Shown: in pieces, positions 2,892 through 56,220 of the stretch
Layout: each line of letters begins with the position of its first letter
How positions within the stretch are numbered: the stretch's first letter is position 1
From: an uncultured Chromatiaceae bacterium
GTDB lineage: Bacteria > Pseudomonadota > Gammaproteobacteria > DRLM01
Assembly (NCBI GenBank): GCA_945787555.1
Contig: CALZJG010000137.1
Location: forward strand, 532-64,531
Direction: 5' to 3'
DNA length: 64,000 nucleotides
Program-made: the position numbers and the translations under genes
Notes under the pieces: model-generated
The model's database searches: none
What the model was told of the DNA's origin: nothing
What the model saw: the letters and a program-made list of their open reading frames with translations, nothing else

Positions 2892-3232
2892 TGTGTGTTC
2901 TTCTTTCCCAGTCGTATATTCAGAAGTATAGATACCGTTTTCGTTTGCAACCAATTTTTTACGCTTTTTGCTATCTGATGACAATAGCGCGCAGCTTCCG
3001 GCCATCGCTGCCAAGAGAATCTCTATTGCCCATAATAGACCGTACACCCATGTAAGAAGATTTCTCCAACGTTGAGGCACTCCGAGAAGCGCTCTATCGG
3101 TCTTGAGACAAGCACAATCAGCATTGGATTAGGCGCCGGCATAACTTCAAAACACCGGTGCAGGTCAGACAGGAGTGGCAGTCAGATTTGGCTGCTTAAT
3201 GGGTGTACGGTTAATTACGGGCAAGACAAACG

Positions 3233-9719: not shown

Positions 9720-10670
9720 TCAGGCCTCCATTAAGTCGGCGATGTGAAGTACCGGCAATTCGCTGACTTGTGACATCGCTCGGCGGTCTTCGGCGCACTC
9801 GGCAACAATGCGTTGTACATTACGCCCACTGAGTATCCAGCGCACTTGTTCAGCGCTGTCAAGTTGCGGCTCAAATGCATTGAGGCCGCCAGCTGCAGTA
9901 GGGATGGCATTGCATTGTAGGTCAAGATTGATATGGCAGCCGCGTTCGTGACGCAGCTGGCTGTAGTGCCTGACCTTTTTCTTGTGATCGAGATGGTAGG
10001 CGCGGGCCTCGATCAGGTAGAGGTCGTTCTTATTTAGTTTACTGGTGAGTGTATTCAGTTGGCTGAGGCTATGGCCAATGGTGAAGAGCTCGGTCGCTGG
10101 CAGCCAGTGGCGCAGCTGTTTCAGCAAATGAACATTGCTGACGTAGAGCCGCTTTACCTTTTGTAGCGGCTCCAGAAAGGCATGCAGCCGATGGTCGGAG
10201 ATCTCGATTCCCGCCTCAAGCGCGAGCGCGATATCATCACCATCATCGATGGCGAGTGCTGCGCTTGTCTCGCAGGAGAGCAGTGTCAGCACCTTATTGA
10301 GGGTGGCTGGCGTTGATCGCAGCGCTTCGCCGGCGAGCACTATGGTGTTCTCCTCTATTCTAATATCAGACGTTGCTTGTGCTAAATGCGCCTTGACAGC
10401 TTCCTTAAGCGTGGCGTTGGAACTCTGAAGAAGAGCCTCTTTTCTAAGTGCGCTAATCATGCCGGTGATGTCAATCTCCTCTGGACAGAGGACATCGCAG
10501 GCGCCACACAGCAGGCAGCTGAAGAGTGCCGGGGCGATCTCGTCATGCGTTGCGTTGTGCTGCAGTGCCTTGGCAATCCCCTGCGGGCTGAACTGCACAT
10601 CGCGCCGCTGTTGCCACATCGGGCAGGAAAGAAGGCAGAGACTACAGCCGTGGCAGTTTGAGTGCGGCAT
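9720..10670 (-). CDS. Iron-sulfur cluster-binding protein with a GlcF/heterodisulfide-reductase-like N-terminus
   Basis: Two ferredoxin-like motifs, CHGCSLCLLSCPMW and CLLCGACDVLCPEE, lie in the first 70 aa. The remainder lacks canonical CCG domains. The gene is adjacent to an FAD-linked oxidase with a 1-bp gap, suggesting translational coupling. Confidence 0.5.
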   Translation of the reverse strand: MPHSNCHGCSLCLLSCPMWQQRRDVQFSPQGIAKALQHNATHDEIAPALFSCLLCGACDVLCPEEIDITGMISALRKEALLQSSNATLKEAVKAHLAQATSDIRIEENTIVLAGEALRSTPATLNKVLTLLSCETSAALAIDDGDDIALALEAGIEISDHRLHAFLEPLQKVKRLYVSNVHLLKQLRHWLPATELFTIGHSLSQLNTLTSKLNKNDLYLIEARAYHLDHKKKVRHYSQLRHERGCHINLDLQCNAIPTAAGGLNAFEPQLDSAEQVRWILSGRNVQRIVAECAEDRRAMSQVSELPVLHIADLMEA

Positions 10671-12302
10671 CTAGAAAATCACGTTGCGGTTGAGGATCAT
10701 TGCGGGATCGGCCTGGCGCTTCATGGCGAGATGTTTGTTGACCACCTCGTCGCCGAGTGCACGACGGATGTAGCCCTTCATCATGCCGCCAAAGCGATAA
10801 TAGCTGGTACCAAGATCGACGCCGATGTCATAGATTGCATTTTTGAAGGACTGTAGTTGGTCGCGGCTATAATTGTCGTCACCGAGCATCGGTTCAAATT
10901 CACAGCCGTAGGCCCACCCCGTTGCATCCGGCGGGAAACATGAGAGCTCATAGTGTGGCCTATGTTCTTCGCGCAATTTTATGCCAACACAATAAAGCGT
11001 GTAGTGCGGAAAATATTTTTTGCACACCGCGTTGCCTCGTTCAACGGCTTCGATAAACTTGTCGATACTGCAGGCGAGGTCGGGGATTACCATCTGACGT
11101 CCGCCCCAGTGTTTCCACACTGCGCGCGAAAAAACCACGGTGCGATCTAGCATCTGTCCTTTCTGCATGTGATGCGTCGGTTGCAGGTCAGGGAATAATT
11201 GGCGTTTTCGTTGATAGAGGTAGAGCGCCTCTTTGACGCGCCACGGGCGCAGTGTGTAATAGGCGGCGGTGCGCAGCGCAAATGGCAGTTCGCCGTAGCC
11301 TCGTAGTATTTTTCGGTGCTGCCTGAGAAATTCGTCCTCGCGTTCATCACTGTCGAAGGCGACGAGCAGTGTGATTGCTTTGTCCATCATCGTCAGGATG
11401 CCGCTGTAGTCACAACATTGTGCCCGATCAATACGCATCAAATCTTCGACCGCAACTCGCAGTGAGGAATAATAGAAGTAGTGCATTCGTAGCGGCGTGT
11501 ATGGACGGATCCGCAAGGTTGCTTCGGTGATGATGCCAAACTGGCCATAGCCAAGGATCACACGTTGAAACAGCTCAGAATTTTCTTGATCTGAACATTC
11601 GACGATCTCGCCAATGGGGGTGACCACTTGTAGCGAAATGGCCTGATCGGCACTACAGCCCAGCTTTGATGAGTTGACATCGATACCGCCGACGCCGATC
11701 GTGCCACCAACCGATGATGTCAGGTTCAGGGGGGCCGAGAGGTAGTCGAGCCCTTCTCTGCGTAGCGCCTCAGCGAGCAGATGCCAGAAGATGCCGCCTT
11801 CGGTGCGCACTGTGAGGGCCTCTTTATCAATATGCCGGACGCGACTCATGCCGGTCATATCGAGCAGTACCCCGCCAAAGGCAACTGATTCGCCCTCGGT
11901 GGTCAAACCACCACCACGGGTCGTCACAGGGACGTGGTGATACTGTGCCAGCTGTATTAGCGCTGCGACCTGTGTAGCACTACGGGCAATTACCACGCCG
12001 TGTGGCATGCCGTGGGCGAGCCCGCCGGCATCGGTGACATAGGTGCCGGTGTTGCTTTGGGTGACGCGCAGCTCAATTCCTGTCTGCTGTAGTGCCGTCG
12101 CAAAGGTCTGCCACTGTTCGCCTTGCCAGCGCTTGGGGTTTGTTTGCTGGCGTGGAATACCCTGCAGCGCATCGGGGCCCACTGGGCATGGTGGTATCTC
12201 ACCGGTTGTGATGTTGCCGGTTGCTCTATTTTGGATATCCACGTTCTTGGTTCTGTGTGATGGTCCTGGCTGGGTCGGAATGATGTCCAGCAAAGTCGCC
12301 AA
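10671..12302 (-). CDS. FAD-linked oxidase (FAD_binding_4 / PCMH-type flavoprotein; GlcD, D-lactate dehydrogenase or AGPS-like)
   Basis: 543 aa with the PCMH FAD-binding signature GVVIARSATQVAALIQLAQYHHVPVTTRGGGLTTEGESVAFGGVLLDMTGMSRV and a C-terminal oxidase domain. It heads the three-gene operon. Confidence 0.7.
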   Translation of the reverse strand: MATLLDIIPTQPGPSHRTKNVDIQNRATGNITTGEIPPCPVGPDALQGIPRQQTNPKRWQGEQWQTFATALQQTGIELRVTQSNTGTYVTDAGGLAHGMPHGVVIARSATQVAALIQLAQYHHVPVTTRGGGLTTEGESVAFGGVLLDMTGMSRVRHIDKEALTVRTEGGIFWHLLAEALRREGLDYLSAPLNLTSSVGGTIGVGGIDVNSSKLGCSADQAISLQVVTPIGEIVECSDQENSELFQRVILGYGQFGIITEATLRIRPYTPLRMHYFYYSSLRVAVEDLMRIDRAQCCDYSGILTMMDKAITLLVAFDSDEREDEFLRQHRKILRGYGELPFALRTAAYYTLRPWRVKEALYLYQRKRQLFPDLQPTHHMQKGQMLDRTVVFSRAVWKHWGGRQMVIPDLACSIDKFIEAVERGNAVCKKYFPHYTLYCVGIKLREEHRPHYELSCFPPDATGWAYGCEFEPMLGDDNYSRDQLQSFKNAIYDIGVDLGTSYYRFGGMMKGYIRRALGDEVVNKHLAMKRQADPAMILNRNVIF

Positions 12303-41785: not shown

Positions 41786-42187
41786 TGTCATTTCGACTGA
41801 AAGGAGAAATCCTATTCCCGATGACACAGTAACCACCGGCCGTTCGGGATACTCTCCGGGCGTTGAGATTTCTCCCTGCGGCCGAAATGACAAGCAGTGC
41901 GGTCGAAATCACAATCGCTGCGGTCTCAATGACACCGGTACGATCAAAATCACCAGCGGTGATCACGTGGACGTCCTCCTAAGGAAGCTCTGAATAATTT
42001 CCTGATGTGTCATTTCGACCGTGGCGAGAAATGACAATTAATTTGAGTCTCCGTCACTATGCGCACCTTCCCGGTAGCCGTCATTCCGGTTGTCTCACAT
42101 TGCGTACATTTCCAGTGACTGTCATTTCGATCGACTGACATTGCGCACATGTGCCGTGGTTGTCGTTTCGACTGAAAGGAGAAATCC
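41786..42187. repeat. Cluster of at least 7 copies or half-copies of the GTCATTTCGACCGCAGGGAGAAATC terminal-inverted-repeat (MITE-like) family in both orientations; the first unit (41786-41892) is a complete ~107-bp element
   Basis: Left arm gtcatttcgactgaaaggagaaatcc (41787-41812), and inverted right arm agatttctccctgcggccgaaatgaca (41866-41892). Further arms: tgcggtcgaaatcaca (41898-41913), tgcggtctcaatgaca (41919-41934), the palindromic tgtcatttcgaccgtggcgagaaatgaca (42008-42036), gtcatttcgatcgactgaca (42121-42140) and ttgtcgtttcgactgaaaggagaaatcc (42160-42187). Confidence 0.75.
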
Positions 42188-42246
42188 TATTCTCACTCAC
42201 AGCACACAGACCGGCATATATAATAATTGACATTCGTAATGTCACT

Positions 42247-43083
42247 TTAACTGTTTATTATTAAGGTATTAACATCGTACCCTAGCCTGGCCACAGCACG
42301 CTGCCCGCGGAATCGCGCCGGGCTGTCGATGGCCCTCAACCGGGCCAAGTCATCAACCCGGCTTTCCACGTCCTTGATGGCCTTCTTAAGAAAAGATCTG
42401 AGATCGCTTTTGATATGTGGCGCCACTTGCTTGATCGGGATGTTCTTGAGCACACAGAAGATGGCCAGGGCATAGGTGACTTCTACCTCATCCAGCGCGC
42501 CCTTGCGCTCCATGGCCGGATTGCTGCAACTGCCGCATCCCACGGCGACCTTGGGACGGGCCGTATTCGCAAACATGATGCCGAAACCCAGGTAAACGCC
42601 TAACAGCTCCATCATGTGCGGCCACTGTTCTTGATCGCAGGGCGCCGGGCTTTGCGCCAGCGCGCCCAGATGATAAGCCAGCGCATGAGCGTAGTTGGCG
42701 ACCATGACGTTGGGATTGCCCACCTGCTGGGGTTCATACAACAGCGTCAATGCGGCGCCGTTCCCCGCTTCCAGACCCTGCATGACCTGCTGCATATTGG
42801 CCAGGGACTCCGCTGGCTGGTCAAATACGCGATGATTGACGATGCGGCAAGGGATGTACGCCAGACCCGCATATTTCTTGACGTGGTCAAGTATCAGCTG
42901 AGCCATCTCCTCCACGCTGTCGCCGTTGCCGGGAAAGCAGCGGTTCGACGGTTCGACCAGGATGGTCTCGTCAAAGAACACATCACTGCCAAAGTTCTGC
43001 AAGGCCCAGGTATAGCCGTCGAACAACCAGGCCGTGGCTGCTTCCGGGAGTAAATCAGGTTTCTTGAAGAATTTATCCAGCAT
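42247..43083 (-). CDS. Hypothetical protein, no recognisable domain
   Basis: 278-aa ORF with plausible coding statistics and a GCGSC cysteine cluster. No family could be assigned from sequence alone. Confidence 0.45.
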   Translation of the reverse strand: MLDKFFKKPDLLPEAATAWLFDGYTWALQNFGSDVFFDETILVEPSNRCFPGNGDSVEEMAQLILDHVKKYAGLAYIPCRIVNHRVFDQPAESLANMQQVMQGLEAGNGAALTLLYEPQQVGNPNVMVANYAHALAYHLGALAQSPAPCDQEQWPHMMELLGVYLGFGIMFANTARPKVAVGCGSCSNPAMERKGALDEVEVTYALAIFCVLKNIPIKQVAPHIKSDLRSFLKKAIKDVESRVDDLARLRAIDSPARFRGQRAVARLGYDVNTLIINS

Positions 43084-43195
43084 AGGGGCACACTACCGTT
43101 GGGGACGTGCAACGTGCACGACTTGAGCCCGCTGCTCCCAGTTCATCGGCGTCCAATGAACAGGGCATTGTCCATCCTGACCACAATAAACCTCT

Positions 43196-43741
43196 TCACC
43201 ACATCAAATCATCCGGAATTTTATAATCCGCGTAGGGATCATCGCCCTCCTGCTCTGGCTCGAACTCATGATCAGACAGGATAATGCACTGCGCGTCGCG
43301 CTGCTTGATCTTCTTCGCCACCGGCATCGGCACCAGCTCGTAGCCCTCATTCAATTTGGCGATCGCCAGACGGCCGGACATGAGATGTTTGTGTACCGTC
43401 TCTGACACGTAGAGGCGCTTGACCACATTGGCGTCGGCAAAGTTGTAAACAATATCGCCATCACGGTCTTGCACCCGATTGGTCTCGATCAACTGCCTGA
43501 CCTGAGCCGCGATGGCCTTGCGCTGCACTTCTTCTTGCTTCTGCTGGTTGAGCTGACGGTCGCGCTCCAGCTTTTCTGTCTGAGCTTGTTGCGCCAGCCG
43601 CTGCGCCTCGCTCAGCGGCTCGGGCGCACCCCGCTTGGTCTTCTGCTTCTGACTTCTATATTGCTTGTTCTTCAGCTGCTGCGCCTGGTTTTTATCAACC
43701 AGGCCACTTTTCTTCAGCTGCTCTAACAGGGAATTGCCCAT
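43196..43741 (-). CDS. DUF2058 domain-containing protein
   Basis: The internal start MGNSLLEQLKKSGLVDKNQAQQ is the canonical DUF2058 N-terminus. A Lys/Gln-rich low-complexity centre and the conserved C-terminal block (DIVYNFADANVVKRLYVSETVHKHL..G.LAI) are present. Confidence 0.6.
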   Translation of the reverse strand: MGNSLLEQLKKSGLVDKNQAQQLKNKQYRSQKQKTKRGAPEPLSEAQRLAQQAQTEKLERDRQLNQQKQEEVQRKAIAAQVRQLIETNRVQDRDGDIVYNFADANVVKRLYVSETVHKHLMSGRLAIAKLNEGYELVPMPVAKKIKQRDAQCIILSDHEFEPEQEGDDPYADYKIPDDLMW

Positions 43742-43783
43742 GGGTGTGCTCCGGGTGCCATGAATGAAAGAAGCTCTGATCAA

Positions 43784-43920
43784 TTGTCATTTCAACCGCT
43801 TACTTTGTCATTTCGACCGCAGGGAGAAATCTTAAGATGCAGATATTGCGCACAGTCCAAAGGTGACAGATTTCTCGCAAGCTCCCTGACTGAACTCGGG
43901 ACAAGGCTCGAAACGACAGC
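43784..43920. repeat. MITE-like element copy: two tandem 21-bp half-TIR units, conserved core, degenerate right arm
   Basis: ttgtcatttcaaccgcttact + ttgtcatttcgaccgcagggagaaatctt (43784-43833), then the core aagatgcagatattgcgcacag, then gacagatttctc (43865-43876) and ctcgaaacgacagc (43907-43920) as the inverted remnant. Confidence 0.7.
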
Positions 43921-43934
43921 TAGTCAGAGTCGCC

Positions 43935-44411
43935 CTAACGCACGTCCAGCAATTCCACGTCGAACACGAGAGTCGCATTGGGCGGGATCACCCCGCCCGC
44001 ACCACGCGCCCCATAGCCCAGCTCCGGGGGAATGGTCAAAGTGCGCTGTCCGCCCACCTTCATGCCCGCCACTCCCTCGTCCCAGCCCTTGATCACCCGG
44101 CCCCCGCCGAGGGGAAAATCAAACGCCTCACCCCGATCACGCGAGCTATCGAACTGCTCCCCTTTATGATCCGGCGCCGCCTCATCGAACAGCCACCCGG
44201 TATAGTGCACGGAAACCCGCTGCCCCGCCGTCACTTCCGCGCCTTCGCCAACAACCACATCCGTCTTGATCAATTCTGTCACGCCGCTCTCCTCTCTGTT
44301 GGAATCCACTGAATCGGAACAGGCACTCACCGCAAGGAGCAGCGTTGCCAACGCCATTGCCCAGGGCACAAAAAGAACACCGCGCATTATTCGTTGTCGT
44401 TCAGGTTTCAT
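43935..44411 (-). CDS. FKBP-type peptidyl-prolyl cis-trans isomerase lipoprotein
   Basis: Lipobox LLLAVSAC, and the FKBP domain signature ([12 protein letters not shown]......[71 protein letters not shown]). Confidence 0.8.
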
Positions 44412-44488
44412 GTGACACCTTATCATGCTGCGCCGCTTGCCCCATCAGGGACTGACCCCTGAAGGAGGTTCTGATTAATGGCATGATG

Positions 44489-44584
44489 TGTCATTTCGAC
44501 CGTCCCTTGGTCATTTCCGCCGTTCCCTTGGTCATTTCGACTGGAAGGAGAAATCTCAAGATGTCGATACTTCGCACGGACTGA
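44489..44584. repeat. MITE-like element copy: three tandem ~22-bp half-TIR units plus the conserved core
   Basis: tgtcatttcgaccgtcccttgg / tcatttccgccgttcccttgg / tcatttcgactggaaggagaaatctc, followed by aagatgtcgatacttcgcacggactga. The core aagATG.cGATA.TtCGCAC.G is conserved with the 43784 copy. The 3' end of the ORF at 44556-45068 lies inside this element. Confidence 0.7.
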
Positions 44585-45068
44585 AACAAGGCGCGACATG
44601 ACCATTAATCTGGACTTCCTTGAACTCATCCAGCCATCGATCCGCCCACCAATTAGCATTCGCCTCGGTATTCTTATGGCTGACCTGCCGCGTGTGGCTG
44701 AGAAAATGAAAACATTCATGCGCCAGGGTGTGCAGGGCGCATTCCTCCAGGTCCTCGAACACAAAGGTTTGCTCACCCGAATACCAACCCTGCTTGTGGC
44801 TATTGGATGGAATCCGCCCCCAATGCTGAAACACGATCGGCGGCGCCATCTCCACATTCACACTGGCCCGTATCCGGTAGCCTTTAAGCAATTCGTGTTT
44901 ATGTTGCCTGGAATAAACCGGGTAGGCGCAACAGCCATGCATCGCGTGATTCCTATTCAGGGGCAACAGCTTGATCCACTCCATGAGTGACACATCATAG
45001 CCGTCGAGCTTGTTCAATATAAAGCTCAGCACATGGGGCATGCCTACCTTGTCGATGACCTTAATCAA
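44556..45068 (-). CDS. Hypothetical protein with an HExxH motif (possible small SprT/DUF45-like zinc metallopeptidase fold)
   Basis: LAHECFHFLSHTRQV contains HExxH with a downstream His. The annotated start is TTG and the true start is uncertain (internal MPHVLSF possible). The stop codon is supplied by the repeat element. Confidence 0.4.
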   Translation of the reverse strand: MIKVIDKVGMPHVLSFILNKLDGYDVSLMEWIKLLPLNRNHAMHGCCAYPVYSRQHKHELLKGYRIRASVNVEMAPPIVFQHWGRIPSNSHKQGWYSGEQTFVFEDLEECALHTLAHECFHFLSHTRQVSHKNTEANANWWADRWLDEFKEVQINGHVAPCFSPCEVSTS

Positions 45069-45122
45069 TTTCTGCCCTTATACATTACCTGGAGCCAAAT
45101 CATTATAAATCGAGACTGACCC

Positions 45123-45158
45123 TGTTTTTGCTGTTTTTGCTGTTTTTGCTGTTTTTCG
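45123..45158. repeat. Perfect 9-bp tandem repeat (TGTTTTTGC) x3 plus TGTTTTTCG in the upstream region of the HExxH gene
   Basis: cctgtttttgctgtttttgctgtttttgctgtttttcgcc read directly from the sequence, ~55 bp upstream of the annotated start at 45068. Confidence 0.85.
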
Positions 45159-45565
45159 CCTTTGAGTACGTCTGTCTGCATTTACGACTCCGCATACATT
45201 TTCTTCAGCCACCGGTTGTCGTCCTCCCGTTCCTTAAGGCGCGCCATCAGCGATGACATGCTTACCCCAATTATTGGCCCGCTATTTGCGCAAGGTTGCT
45301 CTGCTCCTGCTGTGCTCTCGGCACAGCGCTGGTACCGACATGACGGCTTCGGTTTGTTTCAATATCGCCGGGGACTGACTGTCGCTGTAGCGTGATTTCT
45401 TCATACAAAATAGCCTGTTGCAGAATTATTAGAAGATTCTACTTTTGATTACAGCGGTGTTTCGGGGAGATGACCATCGCATGCCCGGTGTATGTGAGTA
45501 CTAAACTATACATATAAGCCTAGAGCTTGTATTGACGACCACGCGGCAACTGCTTAGGAGGTGAC

Positions 45566-45958
45566 ATGGACAACGTTGAAGCACTGCTAAAAACGGCGCT
45601 TGCAGAAGTCGAGCAGATGTTGAGCACCAAGACGGTGATTGGCGAGCCCGTCACAATTGAAGGCCATACCCTCATTCCATTAGTAAGCATCGGTTTTGGA
45701 TATGGTGCCGGGGGTGGCAGCGGCAAAGGTGACGATCCCATGAAGGGCGAAGGCGCGGGGGCAGGTACCGGCGGCGGTGGTGGCGTCAGACCGGTTGCAA
45801 TCATCATCATAAATAAGGACGGTGTGCGGGTAGAGTCCATCAAAGGTGGTGCGACCATCGCCTTTGAAAAGATCGGTGAAGCCATCGGCAAATGCATGGA
45901 AAGCCACACTCCGGGCAAAAGCGCAGAGAAGGGTGAAGGCAAACACGGGCCATGCTAG
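45566..45958 (+). CDS. GerW/YtfJ family protein (sporulation protein YtfJ-like, Gly-rich loop)
   Basis: VIGEPVTIEGHTLIPLVSIGFGYGAGGGSGKGD......GGGGGVRPVAIIIINKDGVRVESI matches the GerW/YtfJ pattern (vG.P..v.G.tiIPv.kvsFGfg.GGG......GGGGG...PvA.ivi..g.v....i). Confidence 0.6.
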   Translation: MDNVEALLKTALAEVEQMLSTKTVIGEPVTIEGHTLIPLVSIGFGYGAGGGSGKGDDPMKGEGAGAGTGGGGGVRPVAIIIINKDGVRVESIKGGATIAFEKIGEAIGKCMESHTPGKSAEKGEGKHGPC

Positions 45959-46548
45959 TTGTTTTACTCGGACTAGTTCTCGGCATCCTAATCCTTCTGG
46001 CGATGCCATTCGATGTGACCTTTCGTCTAACCAAGGATGACGGCGTCCGACTGCGCTTATCTATTGCCTGGGCGTTTGGCCTCCTGTCTAAGGAATTGGG
46101 CAAGACCACCGACAAGCAAGTTGCGGAGAAACCAAAAACCAAAAAAAGACGCCGTAAGCAAGCGCGAGCTGGCAAGGCTAAAGCCAAAGCGGCGATGGCC
46201 TTCATGCGCAGCCCAGGCATGCCCGCACGCTTACTAGGACTGGCGCGGAATATGTGGCGGCAATTACATGTTCGCCAGCTAAACCTGCACCTTACATTCG
46301 GACTGGATGACCCCGCCGATACTGGGCAACTATTCGGTGCACTGGCACCGGCCCTGATTCACACCGATCGATTGTCCAGACTTGATTGCCAGGTACGTCC
46401 GGATTTTTCACAGCCGATTCTGCTGGTAAACGGTGGTGGCCAGCTCCGGGTGATTCCCTTGACTATCATTGGCGTCATGATCGCCTTTTTTCTGTCACCT
46501 GCCTGCTGGCGGGCCTTTACCGCTGCCGCCAAGGCCAACCAATCATAG
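45952..46548 (+). CDS. DUF2953-like membrane protein (usual partner of GerW/YtfJ)
   Basis: N-terminal TM helix (MLVVLLGLVLGILILLAMPF). The layout, with a Lys/Arg-rich linker and a second C-terminal hydrophobic segment, is as in DUF2953 proteins, which are normally encoded beside ytfJ. It overlaps the GerW-like gene by 7 bp. Confidence 0.5.
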   Translation: MLVVLLGLVLGILILLAMPFDVTFRLTKDDGVRLRLSIAWAFGLLSKELGKTTDKQVAEKPKTKKRRRKQARAGKAKAKAAMAFMRSPGMPARLLGLARNMWRQLHVRQLNLHLTFGLDDPADTGQLFGALAPALIHTDRLSRLDCQVRPDFSQPILLVNGGGQLRVIPLTIIGVMIAFFLSPACWRAFTAAAKANQS

Positions 46549-46836
46549 AATCGATCGAGTCTGCCCGTATAGATTTCACTGATCTACTCAACAATAACGC
46601 ATCAAATGCGAGCTCGTATTGTCGGCGTCACATACTCTGAAGCCTTGCTTTCAGCCCCTAATGCCCTTACCCGCGATTTCACTCCTCCAGGTCGAATCGG
46701 CTGTGTGTTTGCGCGCAGCTCGTTGATGACGATGGCACCAGCGAGCAGTGGGCCTTGCCACTGTCTATGTCGGCGGCGCGAACTCCCGGCTTACCCTGCC
46801 CTCCGCCCGGGCTACATTTCCCCCTTCCCCGTCCTG

Positions 46837-46886
46837 TTGACATACCCGGATACTGTACATAAGATCAGTACTGTATATTTAATCAG
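46837..46886 (+). promoter_or_regulatory. SOS-type promoter of the imuA-imuB-dnaE2 cassette: sigma70 -35/-10 with two tandem LexA-box-like palindromes CTGT-N8-TCAG
   Basis: ttgaca (46837-46842), then 17 nt, then taagat (46860-46865). Box 1 is CTGTACATAAGATCAG (46853-46868), overlapping the -10. Box 2 is CTGTATATTTAATCAG (46871-46886). Both resemble the beta/gamma-proteobacterial LexA consensus TACTGT-N8-ACAGTA with one 3' half-site mismatch. imuA starts at 46943. Confidence 0.55.
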
Positions 46887-46942
46887 CCATCGGTGGGTAG
46901 CGTGCGCCAGAGCCAATAGCAGAGCCAACAGGGACAACCATT

Positions 46943-47593
46943 ATGAACACCGCCTTCGAATCCTTGCTCAATCATCCGCAGATTTGGCGCGGCCGGCGCC
47001 CGAGTTGGACGGATGCGGAGTCCATCGCCAGCGGCTATGCCGAGCTCGATGCGCAACTTCCCGGCGGCGGCTGGCCGCGCGGGACGCTCAGCGAAATCCT
47101 GCTGCCCCGGCCCGGCATCGGCGAGCTGCGTTTGCTGCTGCCCGCGCTGGCGCGTTTGCATGACGAAAAGAAATGGATCGCCTTGATCGCCCCGCCCTAT
47201 ATCCCTTATGCGCCGGCCTGGCAGGCCAGCGGTCTCGATCTCTCCCGTTTGCTATGGGTGCGCCCACGCGATGCCGCCGATCAGTTGTGGGCGGTCGAGC
47301 AGGCGTTGCGGGCCGGCACTTGCGGGGCGGTGCTTGCCTGGCCGGGCAGTACGCCCAGTTTCCAACAACTGCGCCGTCTGCAACTGGCCGCGGAGAGCGG
47401 CCGCAGTTGGGGGGTGTTGTTTCGCCCGCCCGCCAGCGCGGCGCAGCCGACGCCCGCATCGGTGCGCCTGCACATACAGGCCCACTCCCGCACGCTCGCC
47501 GTCCATCTGCTGAAACGCCGCGGTGCCTGGGCCGGCGAGCCGGTGCAGATCACGCTGCCCTTCCCCGCCGCACCAAGCGTCGTGCCCAGTTAA
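46943..47593 (+). CDS. imuA: ImuA, SOS-response translesion-synthesis-associated protein (RecA/SulA-like fold)
   Basis: 216 aa, first gene of a three-gene cassette whose second and third genes are clearly imuB and dnaE2. The conserved ImuA blocks W.G...S.G...LP.GG...G.L.E........GE..LLLPALA and the C-terminal ...RL.L...R.G are present. Confidence 0.7.
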   Translation: MNTAFESLLNHPQIWRGRRPSWTDAESIASGYAELDAQLPGGGWPRGTLSEILLPRPGIGELRLLLPALARLHDEKKWIALIAPPYIPYAPAWQASGLDLSRLLWVRPRDAADQLWAVEQALRAGTCGAVLAWPGSTPSFQQLRRLQLAAESGRSWGVLFRPPASAAQPTPASVRLHIQAHSRTLAVHLLKRRGAWAGEPVQITLPFPAAPSVVPS

Positions 47594-47617
47594 TCAATTT
47601 TATGAGCATGCGCTGTC

Positions 47618-49054
47618 ATGTTGTGGCTGTGTCTGTATTTTCCGCAATTGCCCTTGGAGATTTTTTCGCGCGTGGAAGCCACTGCCTCCCCCTGGATCAT
47701 CACCGAGGGTAAAGGCGCACGCCAAACCATCTTCCTGTGCAACGCGCTCGCCGCCTCGCTCGGCATTCGGCCCGGCATGTCGCCCGGGGCGGCTTATGCT
47801 TTGACCGCTACCCTGCGGGTACGCGCGCGCGATGCCGCCGCCGAGCGACAGGCGTTGGCGGCGCTCGCCGCTTGGGCGGGGCAGTTCACGTCGCTGGTCA
47901 GTCTGTCGCCGCCGCAGGCCCTGCTGCTGGAGATCGCCGGCAGTCTGGATTACTTCGGCGGCATCGACGCCTTGCTGCGGCGAGTGCGTCGCCGCGCCGC
48001 CCGGCTCGGTTATGTCGTTGAGTGGGCCGTGGCGCCCACGCCCTTGAGCGCCGAGGTGTTCGCGCGGGTGCCGCTCGCCGCGCCGGTGCTGCACGCGCAA
48101 GATCTCGCCGCCGCGCTGCGTGATGTGCCGCTGCCCCTGCTCGGCTTGGAGGACAAGCTGTTGCACGCGTTGCACGGCATCGGCACGCGTCATGTCGGCG
48201 ATGTGCTGCGCCTGCCGCGCGCCGATCTGGCGCGGCGTTGCGGTCCCGCCTTGATTGAATATCTCGATCGGCTGCTGGGACGGCGCAGCGATCCCCGCGC
48301 GCCCTATGTGCCGCCGCCGCGTTTCGAGCGCCAGCTCCCCTTACCTAGCGAGACGACAGACAGCGAGGCCTTGTTGTTTCCCGCGCGACGTTTGCTGCAG
48401 GAATTAGCCGGCTTTCTGATCGCCCGGCAGGCCGGCACCCAACAGTTGCAGTGGACACTGGCGCATCATCACCAGCCCGCGACGCTGATCTTGCAGGGTC
48501 TCGCCGCGCCCAACCGCGACCCGCCGCATTTGCTCAAACTATTGCGTGAGCGTTTGGCCCGCAGTTCGATCGAACATCCCGTTGAGGGCATCGCCTTACG
48601 GGTGACGGAGTTGCAGCCGCTGCGGCCGCACGCCCTAACGCTGGACGGCGAACGGGAAGCGCCCGCGCAAGACTGGCCGCAGCTAGTCGAAACCTTGCGC
48701 GCCCGCCTCGGCGATGAGGCGGTGCAGGGTCTGCAATGTCGCGACGACCACCGCCCGGAACAGGCCTGGCAAGCCAGCCCGCTAGGCAGCCGCGGCCCCG
48801 CGCTCTCCCACCTCGGCCGACCGTTGTGGTTGTTGCCCGAGCCCGTGAGTTTGCGCCATCGCGACGGCGCGCCTTACCTGGATGCGCCTTTGCATATCGA
48901 AGTCGGTCCGGAACGGCTGGAAAGCGGCTGGTGGGACGGTGGCGACATCACCCGCGATTATTTCATCGCCCGCGATGAGCGGCACAGCCGCTACTGGATT
49001 TTTCGCGAGCGGCGCGGTGAGCGGAGGTGGTTTCTCCATGGCTATTTCGCCTGA
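47618..49054 (+). CDS. imuB: ImuB, Y-family DNA polymerase-like protein without catalytic residues
   Basis: N-terminus MLWLCLYFPQLPLEIF is the signature ImuB start (MLWLaLhFP.LpLEvf). A UmuC-like palm/fingers region and a long C-terminal extension follow. It lies 25 bp after imuA. Confidence 0.8.
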   Translation: MLWLCLYFPQLPLEIFSRVEATASPWIITEGKGARQTIFLCNALAASLGIRPGMSPGAAYALTATLRVRARDAAAERQALAALAAWAGQFTSLVSLSPPQALLLEIAGSLDYFGGIDALLRRVRRRAARLGYVVEWAVAPTPLSAEVFARVPLAAPVLHAQDLAAALRDVPLPLLGLEDKLLHALHGIGTRHVGDVLRLPRADLARRCGPALIEYLDRLLGRRSDPRAPYVPPPRFERQLPLPSETTDSEALLFPARRLLQELAGFLIARQAGTQQLQWTLAHHHQPATLILQGLAAPNRDPPHLLKLLRERLARSSIEHPVEGIALRVTELQPLRPHALTLDGEREAPAQDWPQLVETLRARLGDEAVQGLQCRDDHRPEQAWQASPLGSRGPALSHLGRPLWLLPEPVSLRHRDGAPYLDAPLHIEVGPERLESGWWDGGDITRDYFIARDERHSRYWIFRERRGERRWFLHGYFA

Positions 49055-49115
49055 GGAGGTTTTGATTGATTGCACAGGCATGAACCTTACAGCGTAGGAC
49101 TGCCACGCAGGAGCT

Positions 49116-49173
49116 GTCATCTTGTCATCTCGACCGTAGCCGGTTTGTCATCTCGACCGCAGGGAGAGATCTT
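49116..49173. repeat. Left-end repeat block of the GIY-YIG element: tgtcatc plus two tandem ~23-bp half-TIR units ending cagggagagatctt
   Basis: ctgtcatcttgtcatctcgaccgtagc cggtttgtcatctcgaccgcagggagagatctt, ~35 bp upstream of the GIY-YIG start codon. Confidence 0.7.
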
Positions 49174-49208
49174 GTATTAAGGTGAAGCTTAATTCTGGAG
49201 AGATTGCC

Positions 49209-49532
49209 ATGCCCAAGGAGCAGCAATATTTCGTCTATCTCCTCACCAACTGGAACAACAAAGTCATGTACGTCGGCATGACCAACAACCTCGTTCGCCG
49301 CGTATACGAACACAAGAGCGAGGCGGTCAAAGGTTTTACGGAAAAGTACAAGGAACACAAGCTCGTGTACTTCGAGGAAACCTCAGACGTGCACGCTGCC
49401 ATCGCGCGCGAGAAGGAAATCAAACGCTGGCGACGGGAGAAGAAGAATGCGCTGGTCTTTCAAGGAAACCCCACATGGCGTGATCTCAGTGCAGACCTGG
49501 GCCTTCCATATCGTCATTTCGACCGGAGGTAG
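49209..49532 (+). CDS. Small stand-alone GIY-YIG nuclease family protein (COG2827/UPF0213-like)
   Basis: MPKEQQYFVYLLTNWNNKVMYVGMTNNLVRRVYEHKSEAVKGFTEKYKEHKLVYFEETSDVHAAIAREKEIKRWRREKK has the GIY...YVG motif, the R-x3-EH motif and the conserved K/E of GIY-YIG. A Shine-Dalgarno-like ggagag sits 8 nt upstream of the ATG (track ORF starts earlier at GTG 49182). The last 7 codons and the stop lie inside a repeat unit. Confidence 0.8.
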   Translation: MPKEQQYFVYLLTNWNNKVMYVGMTNNLVRRVYEHKSEAVKGFTEKYKEHKLVYFEETSDVHAAIAREKEIKRWRREKKNALVFQGNPTWRDLSADLGLPYRHFDRR

Positions 49533-49669
49533 TTTGTTATATCGACCGCAGCCGGTTTGTCATCTCGACCGCAGGAAGTTTGTCATCTCGACCGCAGGGA
49601 GAAATCTTAACGCCCCAGCATGTTCGAAACGCACGAAGTTCATCATGCAAATCCGCGCCAGATTTCTCC
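49511..49669. repeat. Right-side repeat block of the GIY-YIG element: four tandem ~23-bp half-TIR units, core, and partial inverted arm
   Basis: tcgtcatttcgaccggaggtag / tttgttatatcgaccgcagccgg / tttgtcatctcgaccgcaggaag / tttgtcatctcgaccgcagggagaaatctt (49511-49608), and the inverted remnant agatttctcc at 49660-49669. Confidence 0.75.
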
Positions 49670-49832
49670 TTTCACCCCCACCCTCCCCTTGTGAGGGGGG
49701 AGGAAAGATGTGGCACTCCACATGACCATCATTCAGCACTTGCCTGACTCGGGCTCTGATCCGGGGCCTGACCTCCAACTTAATTTATGCCAGTTTTCCA
49801 AGAGGCCATCGAGGACGATACGGCACTAGCAC

Positions 49833-52800
49833 ATGAGCGGAATATCACCATATCCCGAACCTAATCCGGCGCCTAATCTGGCGCCGAAATATGCCGAGCT
49901 GCATTGCCTCAGCAACTTTAGCTTTCTGCGCGGCGCCTCGCATCCGGGGGAACTGGTGCAGCGCGCCGCGCAACTGGGTTATCGCGCGCTGGCGCTCACC
50001 GACGAATGTACGCTGGCCGGGGTGGTGCGCGCCCATGTCGCGGCCCAGGCGCATGGCCTGCATCTGATCATCGGCGCGGAATTTAAACTGAGCGACGGTC
50101 CGCGTCTGGTGCTGCTCGCCAGCGATCGCGACGGCTACGGCAATCTCGCGCAATTGATTACTACGGCGCGGCGCGCGGCGGACAAAGGCACTTATCGGTT
50201 ATGCAGCGAGGATCTACGCGACGGCCTCGCCGGTTGTCTCGCTTTGCTGCTGCCCGACGCAGCGACCTCCGTGGCGCAAATGCGCGGCTTGGCGCAACGG
50301 TTCGAACAGCGTTGTTGGTTGCTCGTGGAACGATTGTTGGGTCCCGACGATCAGCACCATCTCGCGCGCTGCCGCGTCCTCGCCGCTGAACTGCAGTTGC
50401 CGCTGGCGGCGGCAGGCGATGTACACCTGCACGCGCGCGGGCGTCGCGCCTTGCACGACACGCTCACCGCTATTCGTTTGGGCTGCACGGTGGCCGAGGC
50501 CGGTTTGGCGCTGCATGCCAACGGCGAACGTCATCTGCGTCCGCGCGCGCGTTTGGGGCGCCTCTATCCTCCCGAGTGTCTCGCGGAAACGCTGCGCATC
50601 GCCGCGCGCTGCCGGTTTTCTCTGGCCGAATTGCGTTACGAGTATCCGCAGGAACTAGTGCCGCGCGGCGCCACGCCCGCCGGTCATTTGCGCCGTCTCA
50701 CTCTGGCGGGCATGCAGGAACGTTGGCCGGACGGCGCGCCGGAGAAAGTGCGTGACTTGGTCGAGCGCGAACTCCAGTTGATCGCGGAGCTACGTTACGA
50801 GCCGTATTTTCTCACCGTGCACGACATCGTGCGTTACGCCCGCAAGCGCGGCATTCTGTGCCAGGGACGCGGCTCGGCCGCCAACTCGGCGGTCTGCTAT
50901 TGCTTGATGATCACCGAGGTCGATCCGGCGCGCATGGCGATGTTGTTCGAGCGTTTTATCTCCAAGGAACGCAACGAGCCGCCCGACATCGACGTGGACT
51001 TCGAGCATGAGCGGCGCGAGGAAGTCATTCAATATATCTATGCCAACTACGGGCGCGAGCGTGCCGCTTTGGCGGCGACGGTGATCAGCTATCGGCCCAA
51101 GAGCGCGCTGCGTGACGTCGGCAAGGCCTTGGGCCTGGATCTCCAGCAGGTCGATAGCTTGTCGAAGTCTCTGGCCTGGGCTGACGGCAATCAAGTCGTG
51201 GCGGAGCGTTTGAGCGAACAGGGTTTTGATCCGCAGCATCCCTTGATCCGGCGTTGGTTGTTGCTCGCCAACACGTTGATCGGTTTTCCGCGCCATCTGT
51301 CGCAACATGTGGGCGGCTTTGTCATTTCGCACGGCCCGCTGTCGCGCCTGGTGCCGATCGAGAATGCGGCGATGGCCGAGCGCACCGTCATTCAATGGGA
51401 CAAGGACGATCTCGATGCGCTGGGTTTGCTCAAGATCGACGTGCTGGCGCTGGGCATGTTGAGCGCCATCCGTCGCGCCATCCAGTTGATCAACGCGTAT
51501 TACGGCAGTGAACTCAGCCTTGCAAGCATCCCGCCGGAAGAGGCGGCGGTCTATCGCATGCTGCAACGGGCGGATACCATCGGCGTGTTTCAGATCGAGT
51601 CGCGCGCGCAGATGGCGATGTTGCCGCGCCTCAGACCTAAGTGTTTTTATGATCTGGTTATCGAAGTAGCGCTGGTGCGGCCGGGCCCCATCCAGGGGCA
51701 GATGGTGCATCCCTATCTGCGCCGCCGCCAGGGACTGGAGCCGGTCAGCTATCCCAGCGCGGCGATACGCGGTGTGCTGGAACGCACGCTGGGCGTGCCT
51801 ATTTTTCAAGAGCAAGTCATGCAGGTTGCCATGGTGGCGGCCGGTTTTTCCGCCGGCGAGGCGGATCAGTTGCGCCGCGCCATGGCCTCGTGGCGGCGCA
51901 AGGGCGGACTCGGTCCGTTTCAACAACGTCTGCGCGACGGTATGCGGGCGCGCGGCTATGACGAGATGTTCGCCGAGCAGATCTGTCGTCAGGTGGAAGT
52001 CTTTGCCGAATACGGTTTTCCCGAATCGCATGCCGCCAGTTTCGCCTTGCTGGTGTATGTCTCGGCCTGGCTCAAATGCCATGAGCCGGCCGCCTTCTGC
52101 GCTGCGCTGCTCAACAGTCAACCGATGGGCTTTTATGCGCCGGCGCAGTTGGTGCAGGACGCGCGCCGCCACGGCGTGGAGATACGCCCGGTGGATGTGC
52201 AGTGCAGTGACTGGGACTGCACGCTGGAGCGCCCTGGTGCTGGTAGCGGCACTGGAGCTGGCAGCGGCCAGCCCACCCTGCGTCTGGGGCTGCGCATGGT
52301 GAAAGGTTTGTCGGCACTGGGTGGCGAGCGCGTGGTAGCCACGCGCCACAGCGCGCGGTTTAGCGATGTCGAGGACTTGGCGCGGCGCGGCGAGTTGACG
52401 CGGCGTGATCTCGATAGTTTGGCGCACGCCGGCGCGCTGGCCAGTCTCGCCAGTCATCGTCACTTAGCGCGTTGGCAGGTGCTGGGGGTGCGGCAAGCTA
52501 ACGATTTGTTGCAAGCCATGCCCATCGCCGAAGGCCGGCCGCTGCTACGCCGTCCCAGCGAAGGCGAAGACATCGTGGCCGATTACGGCCAACTGGGACT
52601 GACGCTGGGGCGGCATCCGCTGGCTTTGTTGCGGCCCCATTTGACGCGACGGCGTTTTATCAGTTCCGCATCGCTACACAGCTTGCCGAACGGACGCCGC
52701 GCGCGCGCCGCGGGCTTGGTCATCACCCGGCAACGACCGGGCACCGCCACCGGCGTTACTTTTCTCACGTTGGAAGATGAGTTCGGCACCATCAATGTCG

Positions 52801-52976
52801 TGGTGTGGAGCGATCTCGCCGAGCGCCAACGTGCCTTGGTGTTGGGCGGACGTTTGCTGGGCGTGAATGGCGTGATAGAAAAAGCCGACGGTGTGTTGCA
52901 TCTGGTGGCCGCGCGCTTGGAAGATCACAGCGCGTTGCTGGGCGGATTGGTTACCAGCTCAAGAGATTTTTGTTGA
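49833..52976 (+). CDS. dnaE2: Error-prone DNA polymerase DnaE2 (ImuC), alpha-subunit-like C-family polymerase
   Basis: 1047 aa with a PHP domain start ([23 protein letters not shown]), polymerase core motifs ([20 protein letters not shown]; [11 protein letters not shown]) and an OB-fold C-terminus. It is the third gene of the imuA-imuB cassette, separated from imuB by the 780-bp GIY-YIG/repeat insertion. Confidence 0.9.
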
Positions 52977-53020
52977 CCGTAGGTCAGGAGGCGTGTGAGT
53001 ACTCCCTGACATATACACCT

Positions 53021-53125
53021 GTCATTTCAACTGAAAGGATAAATCTAGCTCTGGGTCGCCTAGTGACCACCAGGCATTCGGGATGCTCTACGACGCTAAG
53101 ATTTCTCCCTGCGGTCGAAATGACA
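53021..53125. repeat. Complete 105-bp MITE-like element with 26/27-bp terminal inverted repeats
   Basis: Left arm gtcatttcaactgaaaggataaatct (53021-53046) and right arm agatttctccctgcggtcgaaatgaca (53099-53125). The internal sequence (gaccaccaggcattcgggatgctct) is conserved with the 41786-41892 copy (gaccaccggccgttcgggatactct). Confidence 0.8.
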
Positions 53126-53329
53126 CGATGGGAGGTCAAAGTGAGCACCGCGGCTATGGTATTCGCATGCCTATCGCCCTGTTGTCTAAACTGAAAACAG
53201 GCGCTAGGTCAGAGTGTGCGTGAGCGCTCCCAGACATCTCGACGGAAGCTAACATCTTCACGGAAGCCTCGTCAGGCTACCGCCAGCGCGCCAACCTGAC
53301 CTACGACGATCCGCGTGTTGCCAGCGTGG

Positions 53330-55134: not shown

Positions 55135-55272
55135 AGCATAGCGCCGTCAGCATCATTCTTCCCGTCGCAGCGCCTCTGGAGACAGCCGGCATGGCGGCAA
55201 TTCTGCAAGGCGCTGGCCATGGCAGAAGACCACGAACGTTCCTATCGGTCGAGTTATCCCGGTTATCCCCTC

Positions 55273-56220
55273 TCAGCGTGCCGCTGCAGCCACGCCCGCA
55301 TCCTGCACGGCATCGGCCAGCGCCTCGCCCAGCAGTTCATGGACGCGCGAGGTAGGATGTATCTCGTCGAAGAAGACATAATTATTTATTGTAAACGGGT
55401 TGCAGGCGCCTAACGGATAGCTGGCCAGGCAAGCGTCTTGTGTGTTGATCAACCCTAGCGCGCCCGCATTCGCTATCCAGCCGTGCAAGGCGCTGAAGAA
55501 ATCGAACTCCTTGATATGGATCCCCAGACGGGCGCGGAGGCGATCGGCGCGACGGGTGAGTTCATGGTTATACACCCGTGTGAGCCAAGTGGCGGTAGCG
55601 GCCAGATGGCGTTTGCCGGTTTCATGTGCCAAACGTCGGGTTTCCGGTAGGAGGCCGATGTCCGGGACATTCACGAGCAGGAAGTGGCGGGCGCCGGCCG
55701 CCGTGAGGGCGCGTATGGCACTGGCCTCCACCAGTACAGCGAAACGCACCTTCAGCCAGGCGGCGAAGAGATTGCGCGCATCGCGGGCCGCCCGCACATC
55801 ATTTCCGCCGATGAATACGACATAAAGGGCATCGGGGTCGGCGACACCGCCCACATTGCTCAGGTAGGCCGCCACCTGCGCCAATAAGTCTTGCGGCTCA
55901 AAGTCCCCGGCCTCAGCGCCAACCACGGCATAGTTGGTGCCGACCGCTGCGCCAATAAAATGTAGCGAGGCCTGGGCGCTCAGGCCTAGCCTCTCTGCGA
56001 GCACTTCGACCGCCACCGGCCCATTGGTAGCGCGCGTCTGCCCGAAAAAGGGCGGATCGGGAGGTCGCTGATCGGGCGGCACCAAGGATGCCGCGTTGCC
56101 GACATCGGAAAGGCTGTCGCCCTTCACGAACAGTTGCGAGTACGGTCCCGCCGCGTAGGCGACGGACGCCAACAACAGCATGCTCAACAGGGTGAAGCGA
56201 GCGAGATAGGTTCGGAACAT
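55273..56220 (-). CDS. Secreted SGNH/GDSL-family lipase/acylhydrolase
   Basis: Signal peptide MFRTYLARFTLLSMLLLASVAYAAGP, the catalytic GDSLSD block (FVKGDSLSDVGN), a GGND block (VVFIGGNDV) and a C-terminal DxxH (FFDEIHPT). Confidence 0.75.
   Translation of the reverse strand: MFRTYLARFTLLSMLLLASVAYAAGPYSQLFVKGDSLSDVGNAASLVPPDQRPPDPPFFGQTRATNGPVAVEVLAERLGLSAQASLHFIGAAVGTNYAVVGAEAGDFEPQDLLAQVAAYLSNVGGVADPDALYVVFIGGNDVRAARDARNLFAAWLKVRFAVLVEASAIRALTAAGARHFLLVNVPDIGLLPETRRLAHETGKRHLAATATWLTRVYNHELTRRADRLRARLGIHIKEFDFFSALHGWIANAGALGLINTQDACLASYPLGACNPFTINNYVFFDEIHPTSRVHELLGEALADAVQDAGVAAAAR

Follow-up and report, generated by a model that had tools for sequence, protein, structure and literature searches.

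In Neisseria meningitidis, the 94-amino-acid (aa) protein SsnA, which consists of a single GIY-YIG domain (CDD cd10448), binds the hairpin repeat NTS (CGTCATTCCCGCGMAVGCGGGAATCYRG) only as single-stranded DNA (ssDNA), cutting a few nucleotides (nt) upstream (Chenal et al. 2025, Nat Commun 16:2388, PMC11893778). That paper states that cleavage is abolished by the substitutions Y6A, Y17A and E64A, that the three nt preceding the palindrome are important for cutting and the C that follows it is important for binding, that the enzymes tested (four homologs, from Neisseria, N. elongata, N. wadsworthii and Wolbachia) do not cut double-stranded DNA (dsDNA) and that SsnA does not bind RNA. It also states that Ssn-related motifs (SRMs) flank 71% of homologs, on both sides in 42%, that the gene is present in 81% of the genomes that have over 200 SRMs and that the enzyme lowers Neisseria transformation by NTS-bearing DNA; the NTS-ssnA-NTS layout is called insertion-sequence-like, an analogy is drawn to IS200/IS605 and to repetitive extragenic palindromes (REPs) with their RAYT proteins, and mobility is raised as a hypothesis. 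We found no later literature on SsnA. Here we analyze a 64,000-nt stretch of contig CALZJG010000137.1 from an uncultured Chromatiaceae bacterium (hereafter the window), in which a 107-aa open reading frame (ORF) at 49209-49532 on the plus strand is wedged between imuB and dnaE2 and surrounded by copies of a short repeat. We conclude that this locus is very probably an Ssn/SRM module, in which a nuclease gene of the SsnA family, encoding a single GIY-YIG domain, is accompanied by the hairpin repeat cognate to it.

Relationship to SsnA and its repeats

The window ORF encodes a single GIY-YIG domain (Pfam PF01541, matched over almost its full length by residues 6-79 of 107, E 7.5e-16). BLASTP aligns it with Neisseria SsnA without gaps over 92 aa at 38% identity (E 4e-25), hhalign gives a probability of 99.9, and Y10, Y21 and E68 of the window protein fall on Y6, Y17 and E64 of the Neisseria enzyme. 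Across 18 homologs the invariant residues are Y10, Y21, R31, E34, H35, E68 and N87. The window gene is intact and has all of the catalytic residues. A tblastn search of PLSDB with the window protein gave one match, in a chromosome-sized N. gonorrhoeae record of 2.17 Mb; the ORF found there is 94 aa long, has Y6, Y17 and E64, lies among 9 canonical NTS and 16 dRS3 within 3.3 kb and is followed by a unit directly after its stop codon. PADLOC, PHROGs and NCBIfam returned only weak, generic GIY-YIG matches, with no NCBIfam model above its cut-off, and the exact protein of the window ORF has no database record.

The repeat points the same way. Its unit shows the hallmarks of the NTS, namely GTC, a hairpin beginning ATTYC and a C after the hairpin. 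A 95-aa homolog (locus L211) that is 54% identical to the window protein is embedded in at least 16 canonical NTS units, and other relatives, 54-60% identical, have perfect-stem hairpins of their own just before the ATG; a continuous series therefore leads from the NTS to the window unit. What the window locus shares with the Ssn/NTS system is thus (i) a protein of about 95 aa that consists of one GIY-YIG domain and has identical, identically spaced catalytic residues; (ii) oriented hairpins on both sides of the gene that start GTC-ATTYC and end GRAAT-C; and (iii) a unit right at the stop codon, with repeats that are clustered, intergenic and far more numerous than the gene. It differs in that the window hairpin has a G.A/A.G loop and a triloop where the NTS has a continuous 8-bp stem, and in that the 38%-identical protein belongs to an uncultured gammaproteobacterium, where it is inserted in an imuA-imuB-dnaE2 operon. 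Three features go beyond what the consulted parts of Chenal et al. describe: tandem 5' half-units with a period of 17-24 nt, a fixed position of the upstream unit relative to the start codon and a 6:1 excess of convergent unit pairs.

Association of the gene and the repeat across loci

The window protein has 3,933 database relatives, the best 120 of which are 70-86% identical over the core; named sources among these 120 include Nitrospira, Bradyrhizobium, Hydrogenophilales, Sulfuricella and Gammaproteobacteria. The C-terminal tails of the same 120 homologs are encoded by the repeat (for example CHFDRREKS, CHSERSEES, VISTEGRNL, VIPNEVRNL and DFSLRSK), and homolog lengths vary because the C-termini run into it in different frames and orientations. 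No homolog was found in viral contigs.

We then scored 80 metagenome loci, fetched with the window protein, for units within 300 bp of the gene, counting as full units those with at most 3 mismatches. Full units were present upstream in 52 loci and downstream in 52, and half-units upstream in 73 and downstream in 77. Both sides carried full units in 43 of the 80, to be set beside the 42% given for SRMs by Chenal et al., and the co-occurrence of such GIY-YIG genes with the repeat, as the sequence-only reading of this DNA had anticipated, is thereby upheld. Unit density was 3.41/kb within 300 bp of the gene and 0.126/kb elsewhere in these loci, a 27-fold enrichment. Upstream units lie on the coding strand in nearly all cases, and a gap of 2 nt typically separates the unit from the ATG, so that its 3' arm (GGAG) occupies the Shine-Dalgarno position; downstream, the usual layouts are a plus unit followed by a minus unit about 45 bp on, or a minus unit directly after the domain. 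The link between gene and repeat is therefore general, in the window and across phyla.

The repeat also occurs far from the gene. A scan of one genome per species with the pattern GTCATTYCGA-N7-GAGRAATC returned at least 120 loci over a very wide range of phyla, and an ssnA gene is present in only 1 of the 120 listed. Among the 127 units in these listed loci, pairs with a partner within 175 bp were convergent in 36 cases and divergent in 6, and 5' half-units lie just upstream of 17. The units are co-oriented with neighbouring genes in a ratio of about 3:1, which is near the usual bacterial background and uninformative. A search of 84 loci for recent transposition, in the form of near-identical ORFs in differing contexts, found none, all such pairs being syntenic. 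In one set of syntenic loci from related strains (L137-L140, metagenome Ga0256832), the ssnA ORF is 93-95% identical and the flanks 75-91%; there, ssnA is either more constrained than its neighbours or has been exchanged between strains.

Repeat units in the window

The repeat consists of a 25-nt unit, GTCATYTCGACCGCAGGGAGARATC, plus tandem 5' half-units, and it is found on both sides of the ORF. Its core, GTCATYTCGACCG, occurs 16 times in the window, compared with 0.2 expected from shuffles, and 0 of 100 shuffles reached 16. The GIY-YIG gene is present in a single copy, and the ten full units of the window are all intergenic and all within 41787-53124, about 11 kb around the gene. The features of the gene region and of the wider cluster are as follows.

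41787-41933: convergent unit pair (41787-41811 plus, 41867-41891 minus), then minus-strand half-units at 41902-41912 and 41923-41933; non-coding, MITE-like (resembling a miniature inverted-repeat transposable element)
42009-42186, plus strand: further units, with full units at 42009-42033 (extended palindrome GTCATTTC..GAAATGAC) and 42162-42186 and, between these, a half-unit at 42121
43786-43878, plus strand: half-unit, full unit (43807-43831), spacer and partial inverted arm AGATTTCTC
44490-44555, plus strand: two half-units and a full unit (44531-44555), without inverted arm
47618-49054: imuB (Y-family polymerase, IMS domain), upstream of the GIY-YIG ORF
49055-49115: left part of the insert, resembling neither other ssnA loci nor any other part of the window
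49116-49146, plus strand: upstream 5' half-units, a degenerate GTCATCTTGTC and then TTGTCATCTCGACCGTAGCCGGT
49147-49171, plus strand: upstream full unit GTCATCTCGACCGCAGGGAGAGATC (a putative SRM)
49172-49208, plus strand: leader, between the upstream full unit and the ATG
49209-49532, plus strand: putative ssnA-family gene, 107 aa, single GIY-YIG domain
49511-49579, plus strand: array of three tandem 5' half-units (23 bp each) that overlaps the ORF at its 3' end
49582-49606, plus strand: downstream full unit GTCATCTCGACCGCAGGGAGAAATC
49607-49674: spacer (53 nt) and truncated inverted unit AGATTTCTCCTTTCA (49660-49674)
49675-49885: right part of the insert, unique, holding a G+C-rich hairpin (49675-49703) and the new dnaE2 start
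49833-52976: dnaE2, downstream of the GIY-YIG ORF
53021-53147: convergent pair (53021-53045 plus, 53100-53124 minus) and a degenerate half-unit, between dnaE2 and a SRAP gene

Most of what the sequence-only reading had said about this arrangement stands. The ORF is indeed bracketed by repeat blocks, and its last codons (about 7) and stop do fall within the first downstream half-unit; residues 98-107 are repeat-encoded. The upstream block (49122-49173) ends 35 bp before the ATG, as described, and proves to be a half-unit and a full unit in place of two half-sized terminal inverted repeats; likewise, tandem units and a partial inverted arm follow the gene, the units being three half-units and one full unit where four halves had been counted. 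As for the four non-coding copies it had listed, those at 41787 and 53021 are complete pairs, the far arm of the one at 43786 is truncated and the one at 44490 has no inverted arm; the units at 42009, 42121 and 42162 were not on its list. The two complete pairs (41787-41891 and 53021-53124) are about 105 bp long, share homology and form long hairpins when folded (z about -2.5 to -3.1). Homology to both extends to the segment 49582-49674, itself a MITE-like copy, which aligns with 53021-53124 in reverse orientation at 70% over 94 nt. The units that immediately flank the gene are in direct orientation, in the window and in many other loci, and the inverted arm at 49660 is truncated.

Ahead of the ATG, the unit ends 2 nt before the start codon in most homologs, whereas in the window a 26-nt insert intervenes. 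This insert (leader 49171-49204) contains a small palindrome (ATTAAG gtgaag CTTAAT) and is bounded by a duplicated GGAGAGAT. The duplicated 3' half GGAGAGAT at 49197-49204 is likely the Shine-Dalgarno sequence of the ORF.

The tandem 5' half-units (GTCATTTCG plus 8-14 nt, with a period of 17-24 nt depending on lineage) are always 5' of a full unit; in the window they lie at 49511-49579, 41897-41933, 43786 and 44490-44522, and they are also seen in loci L002 and L007 and in many homolog tails. They may be scars left by repair, or may offer the lone 3' arm a choice of pairing partners. Several unit arrays have a conserved box, AAGGARGYTCTGATNAAT, immediately on their 5' side (41981-42008, 43767-43785 and 44462-44489). 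In an unrelated Gammaproteobacteria metagenome-assembled genome (MAG; L004, about 9960-9985), the same box, as GAAGCTCTGATCAA, stands before the unit that lies upstream of ssnA. This box may be a further conserved part of the 5' flank of the repeat. Far from the cluster, an isolated 3' half, GATTTCTCC (3059-3067), and an isolated 5' half, GTCATTTCGACC (3232-3244), stand 170 bp apart in divergent orientation, which may reflect chance or the decay of a former copy. At 45122-45156, CTGTTTTTG is perfectly repeated in tandem, with about four copies in 35 nt. Rfam gave nothing relevant, either at gathering thresholds on the window and 12 loci or at E values up to 5 on 41.5-53.4 kb.

Hairpin structure of the unit

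The unit reads T-GTC-ATTTC..GAAAT-C-T and is an oriented hairpin, with GTC 5' of the palindrome and C after it. In the genome-wide sample the search pattern prescribed both GTC and the final C, which therefore carry no evidential weight; at the pattern-free flanks, T precedes the unit in 118 of 142 cases and follows it in 120 of 142 (listed loci). Evidence for pairing comes from covariation at pattern-free positions. In 58 distinct units, positions 7 and 21 are T-A in 30 and C-G in 25, with 3 exceptions, and positions 11 and 17 are G-C, A-T or C-G. A formal count over 82 distinct units from the 120 listed loci found that 97.6% of cells pair, compared with 87.2% in shuffles, none of 500 of which reached the observed value; slid controls gave 7-60%. 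In this larger set, pair 8-22 is CG in 41 and UA in 38, and pair 12-18 is GC in 36, AU in 18 and CG in 18. Three base pairs of the hairpin covary. The upstream full unit of the window also carries a compensated change in its outer stem (ATCTC/GAGAT).

From this we infer a hairpin whose outer stem of 5 bp (ATTYC/GRAAT) is separated by a tandem G.A/A.G internal loop from an inner stem of 2 bp, which is capped by a GNA-type (G/A-N-A) triloop. Because the search pattern left no freedom at the four positions of the G.A/A.G loop, the fact that they are constant in the sample is no evidence for it. Long forms of the unit (upstream of and at the 3' end of ssnA in L004, and in the tails CHFEPCPERSEGACEKS and DFSQAPSLRSGHGSK) resemble two hairpins of like design, one of which (TCCC-GA-GC-GNA-GC-GA-GGGA) is set within the loop of the other.

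Insertion between imuB and dnaE2

In the window, imuB and dnaE2 are separated by a 778-bp gap that holds the ORF, and an imuA/SulA-like gene lies further upstream of imuB. The closest relatives found have an ImuB that is 71-72% identical; in them imuB and dnaE2 overlap, by 17-50 nt, and no GIY-YIG gene lies between the two. An alignment of the junction places about 830 bp of added DNA directly after the imuB stop codon, with the result that dnaE2 in the window has a new start (ATG at 49833) and a new N-terminus. The module (about 49116-49674) thus arrived by insertion at the imuB|dnaE2 overlap, and the proposal that the junction had been split is confirmed by these empty sites. Similarity to other gene-bearing loci is confined to 49123-49610, the left 60 bp and right 210 bp of the insert being unique. 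Immediately after the truncated inverted unit, the G+C-rich hairpin at 49675-49703 (CCCCCACCCTCCCC ttgtga GGGGGGAGG) has no T-tract and no match elsewhere. Target-site duplications, for which the sequence-only reading had suggested a search, were looked for and not found flanking 41787-41891, 53021-53124 or the insert (49055-49885), nor does the insert contain an imuB or dnaE2 remnant or a flanking duplication of the kind seen for hsdR in L007.

In L007, from a Hydrogenophilales MAG, and likewise in L002, from a Nitrospira MAG, the ssnA module occupies the space between the hsdR and hsdS genes of a type I restriction-modification operon. The last 25 or so hsdR codons are duplicated around the module in L007 (1790-1866 and 2326-2402, 77 bp, 87% identity); in L002 (about 10650-10745) the duplication of the hsdR 3' end is similar only at the protein level. 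Here the module seems to have brought along a substitute 3' end for the gene into which it inserted.

The protein shares 76-81% identity with its homologs from MAGs of Nitrospira, Bradyrhizobium and Hydrogenophilales, whereas ImuB is about 50% identical at comparable distances, and for this reason the module probably reached this genome by horizontal transfer. A MAG contig (L001) that is 99.6% identical to the window carries the same insertion, with an ORF copy that is 98% identical, hence there is no polymorphism for the insertion between the two. Single-nucleotide differences from this sister MAG number 6 in the 559 bp of the module and 41 in 9717 bp overall, which are too few to interpret. 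About 1 kb of the window (55199-56218, with a GDSL-lipase gene at 55273-56220 on the minus strand) is absent from L001, reflecting either a strain difference or a gap in the MAG assembly.

Expression and proposed mode of action

A signal scan found no promoter-like site and no credible terminator-like site around the gene. Upstream of imuA, at 46851-46886 and beside a TTGACA, there are two adjacent LexA-box-like sites, TACTGTACATAAGATCAG and TACTGTATATTTAATCAG (TACTGT-N8-TCAG); 0.04 were expected, the pattern having been chosen after the sequence was seen. Because the gene lacks such signals of its own and LexA-like sites precede imuA, ssnA is probably co-transcribed with the SOS mutagenesis operon as imuA-imuB-ssnA-dnaE2, and the ssDNA nuclease may be damage-induced.

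By analogy with the Ssn homologs that have been tested, the protein would bind the repeat only when the GTCAT... strand is single-stranded and folded. The predicted substrate is the single-stranded unit strand TTGTCATCTCGACCGCAGGGAGAAATCTT plus its 5' flank, which would be nicked on the GTCAT strand about 4 nt 5' of GTC, while dsDNA, RNA and the complementary strand would be ignored. Solo units and the nearby convergent pairs would be copies of the same predicted binding site. From two directly oriented units the enzyme could free a defined stretch of ssDNA comprising unit and gene, and a convergent pair would place one nick per strand at the outer borders; either layout could feed a mobility pathway. 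Our preferred guess is that the units spread via recombination, repair or template switching at Ssn nicks in transient ssDNA. To our knowledge Ssn enzymes are hydrolytic ssDNA nickases with no joining activity, and we favor this route over true cut-and-paste because such a nickase cannot join DNA. Repair by recombination or template switching between units would also yield tandem 5' half-units.

Comparison with other systems

Among other repeat systems, the REP/REPIN-RAYT elements (relatives of IS200/IS605) are similar in having a single-copy nuclease gene flanked by short hairpins with a conserved 5' tag, repeats that are recognized as ssDNA, convergent pairs as the common dispersed form and an intergenic, clustered distribution. 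The partner here, however, is a hydrolytic GIY-YIG nuclease, whereas a RAYT is an HUH/Y1 (IS200/IS605-type) transposase with a covalent intermediate, and the window unit is conserved in sequence across phyla whereas REPs are lineage-specific. Free-standing GIY-YIG homing endonucleases (Seg proteins, the I-TevI class) share the GIY-YIG core and the look of a selfish gene placed between conserved genes, but the window protein has no DNA-binding domain and its tested relatives cut only ssDNA. Classical MITEs (Correia elements and other derivatives of DDE insertion sequences) resemble the non-coding copies in their length of about 100 bp, inverted ends, multiple copies and long hairpins. The window elements differ from them in that target-site duplications are absent, each supposed terminal inverted repeat has a hairpin structure of its own, tandem half-units are present at one end and the partner is not of the DDE type. 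The units are shared with the gene region, and the spacers show no similarity to it. Thus, of the view that the gene with its terminal repeats is an autonomous element and the MITE-like copies its deletion derivatives, the existence of convergent non-coding pairs holds up, and the directly oriented flanking units, the unrelated spacers and the missing target-site duplications do not fit.

The UPF0213/YhbQ/YazA/Slx1-like proteins share the GIY-YIG fold and a length of about 100 aa, and the window protein had been taken for one of them (COG2827 type). The only solved member of UPF0213/YhbQ, BH0048 (PDB 1zg2), matches it at E 0.017 and 18.5 bits, which is not significant. We know of no repeat association reported for that family. 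The suggestion that no small GIY-YIG protein of this kind had been linked to a repeat family, and hence that a new class was at hand, gives way to the clear homology with SsnA, since such a link is the very subject of Chenal et al. (2025). The association of gene and repeat is real but already known, and the window case is a new example of the published Ssn system.

Discussion

Several of our own results and assumptions weigh against the assignment of the locus to the Ssn/SRM system as we have described it. A single unit is not predicted to fold significantly with nearest-neighbour DNA energies (z -1.0 and +0.4), and the proposed structure therefore rests on covariation. The published SRM motif, HGTCWYN(0-2)YYVSBRHN(0-5)WNVSBRGN(0-2)RNCYNB, matches 0 of the window units and 2 of the 80 subfamily loci, because the G.A/A.G loop breaks the continuous stem that the motif requires; we take the motif to be a search device rather than a definition, with the window subfamily as its blind spot. 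The predicted activity and cut position are extrapolated from 38%-identical enzymes outside the window subfamily, whose hairpins have no G.A/A.G loop, and the probable SOS co-transcription is read solely from absent consensus signals.

One alternative, which overlaps with an Ssn/SRM module, is that unit-ssnA-unit is an autonomous, self-mobilising transposon and that the convergent pairs are its non-autonomous MITEs, cut and pasted by the nuclease. The insertion confirmed by empty sites, the occurrence of the module in contexts as unrelated as imuB|dnaE2 in the window and hsdR|hsdS in L002 and L007, the very high protein identity across phyla, the many loci with a plus unit before the gene and a minus unit after it, the excess of convergent over divergent pairs (36 to 6) and the fact that shared DNA stops at the units are all in keeping with this. 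We nevertheless regard it as doubtful given that neither the insert nor the two complete pairs have target-site duplications, that the MITE spacers show no similarity to the gene region, that the units next to the gene are directly oriented in the window and many other loci, that near-identical metagenome ORFs sit in syntenic rather than new contexts and that the window and the 99.6%-identical MAG show no presence/absence difference. GIY-YIG nucleases, moreover, hydrolyse DNA, and we know of no strand-transfer step for them. That the module is a true mobile element moving via ssDNA intermediates, made by a hydrolytic GIY-YIG nickase and finished by host repair, with the convergent pairs as non-autonomous copies, seems to us rather unlikely. 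If it were, this would be transposition without a covalent transposase intermediate and would explain why a 25-nt motif is kept across many phyla, and the tandem 5' half-units would be the scars of repeated cut-and-repair cycles.

A domesticated host function, in which the nuclease restricts or trims incoming or exposed unit-bearing ssDNA during transformation, conjugation or repair, modulates recombination near the flanked genes and has a functional position in the SOS operon, can be entertained tentatively. The phenotype that argues for it is documented in Neisseria by Chenal et al., and the host here is uncultured; within the window, the intact gene with its complete catalytic residues, its probable co-transcription with a LexA-type operon and the confinement of all ten intergenic units to 11 kb around it would suit such a role. 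The closest relatives found lack the gene at this site, however, and it is therefore not a conserved part of the cassette. We consider it very improbable that the protein is a classical free-standing homing endonuclease that cuts dsDNA at the empty junction or at the unit and is copied by homologous repair, the repeats being merely its target. Nothing resembling a DNA-binding domain extends beyond the catalytic core of about 95 aa, tested family members do not cut dsDNA according to Chenal et al., and the window has no flanking duplication; the 77-bp hsdR 3'-end copy on both sides of the module in L007 and the position between two conserved genes are what intronless homing would give, and the matches to homing endonucleases in PHROGs and NCBIfam are weak, the latter reaching 23.6 bits against a cut-off of 56. 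It is more improbable still that the units are generic REP-like terminators or mRNA stabilisers, spread in some other way, with the gene nearby by coincidence. It is true that 119 of the 120 listed unit loci have no ssnA within 8 kb or less and that covariation alone cannot separate DNA from RNA. Set against this are the 27-fold enrichment beside the gene, the fixed position and orientation of the upstream unit, the occurrence of units in both orientations relative to neighbouring genes, the lack of a T-tract after units and of an Rfam match (window, 12 loci and 41.5-53.4 kb), and the statement of Chenal et al. that SsnA does not bind RNA.

Reading the locus as an Ssn/SRM module corrects its annotation, to an Ssn nuclease with its cognate repeat and not a YhbQ-like protein or an undescribed class. 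It also provides one of the cleaner natural cases of insertion of such a module, as an overlapping junction in relatives can be compared with a split junction and a new dnaE2 start in the window. The hairpin subfamily with the putative G.A/A.G loop and GNA triloop is present in many phyla and is overlooked by the published SRM motif; published counts of SRM-flanked ssn genes and of SRM-rich genomes are therefore probably underestimates. The enzyme and its site would represent a distinct specificity for the ssDNA tools that have been proposed for the Ssn family. Finally, if ssnA is co-transcribed with the SOS operon, this bacterium would induce an ssDNA nickase exactly when ssDNA is abundant.

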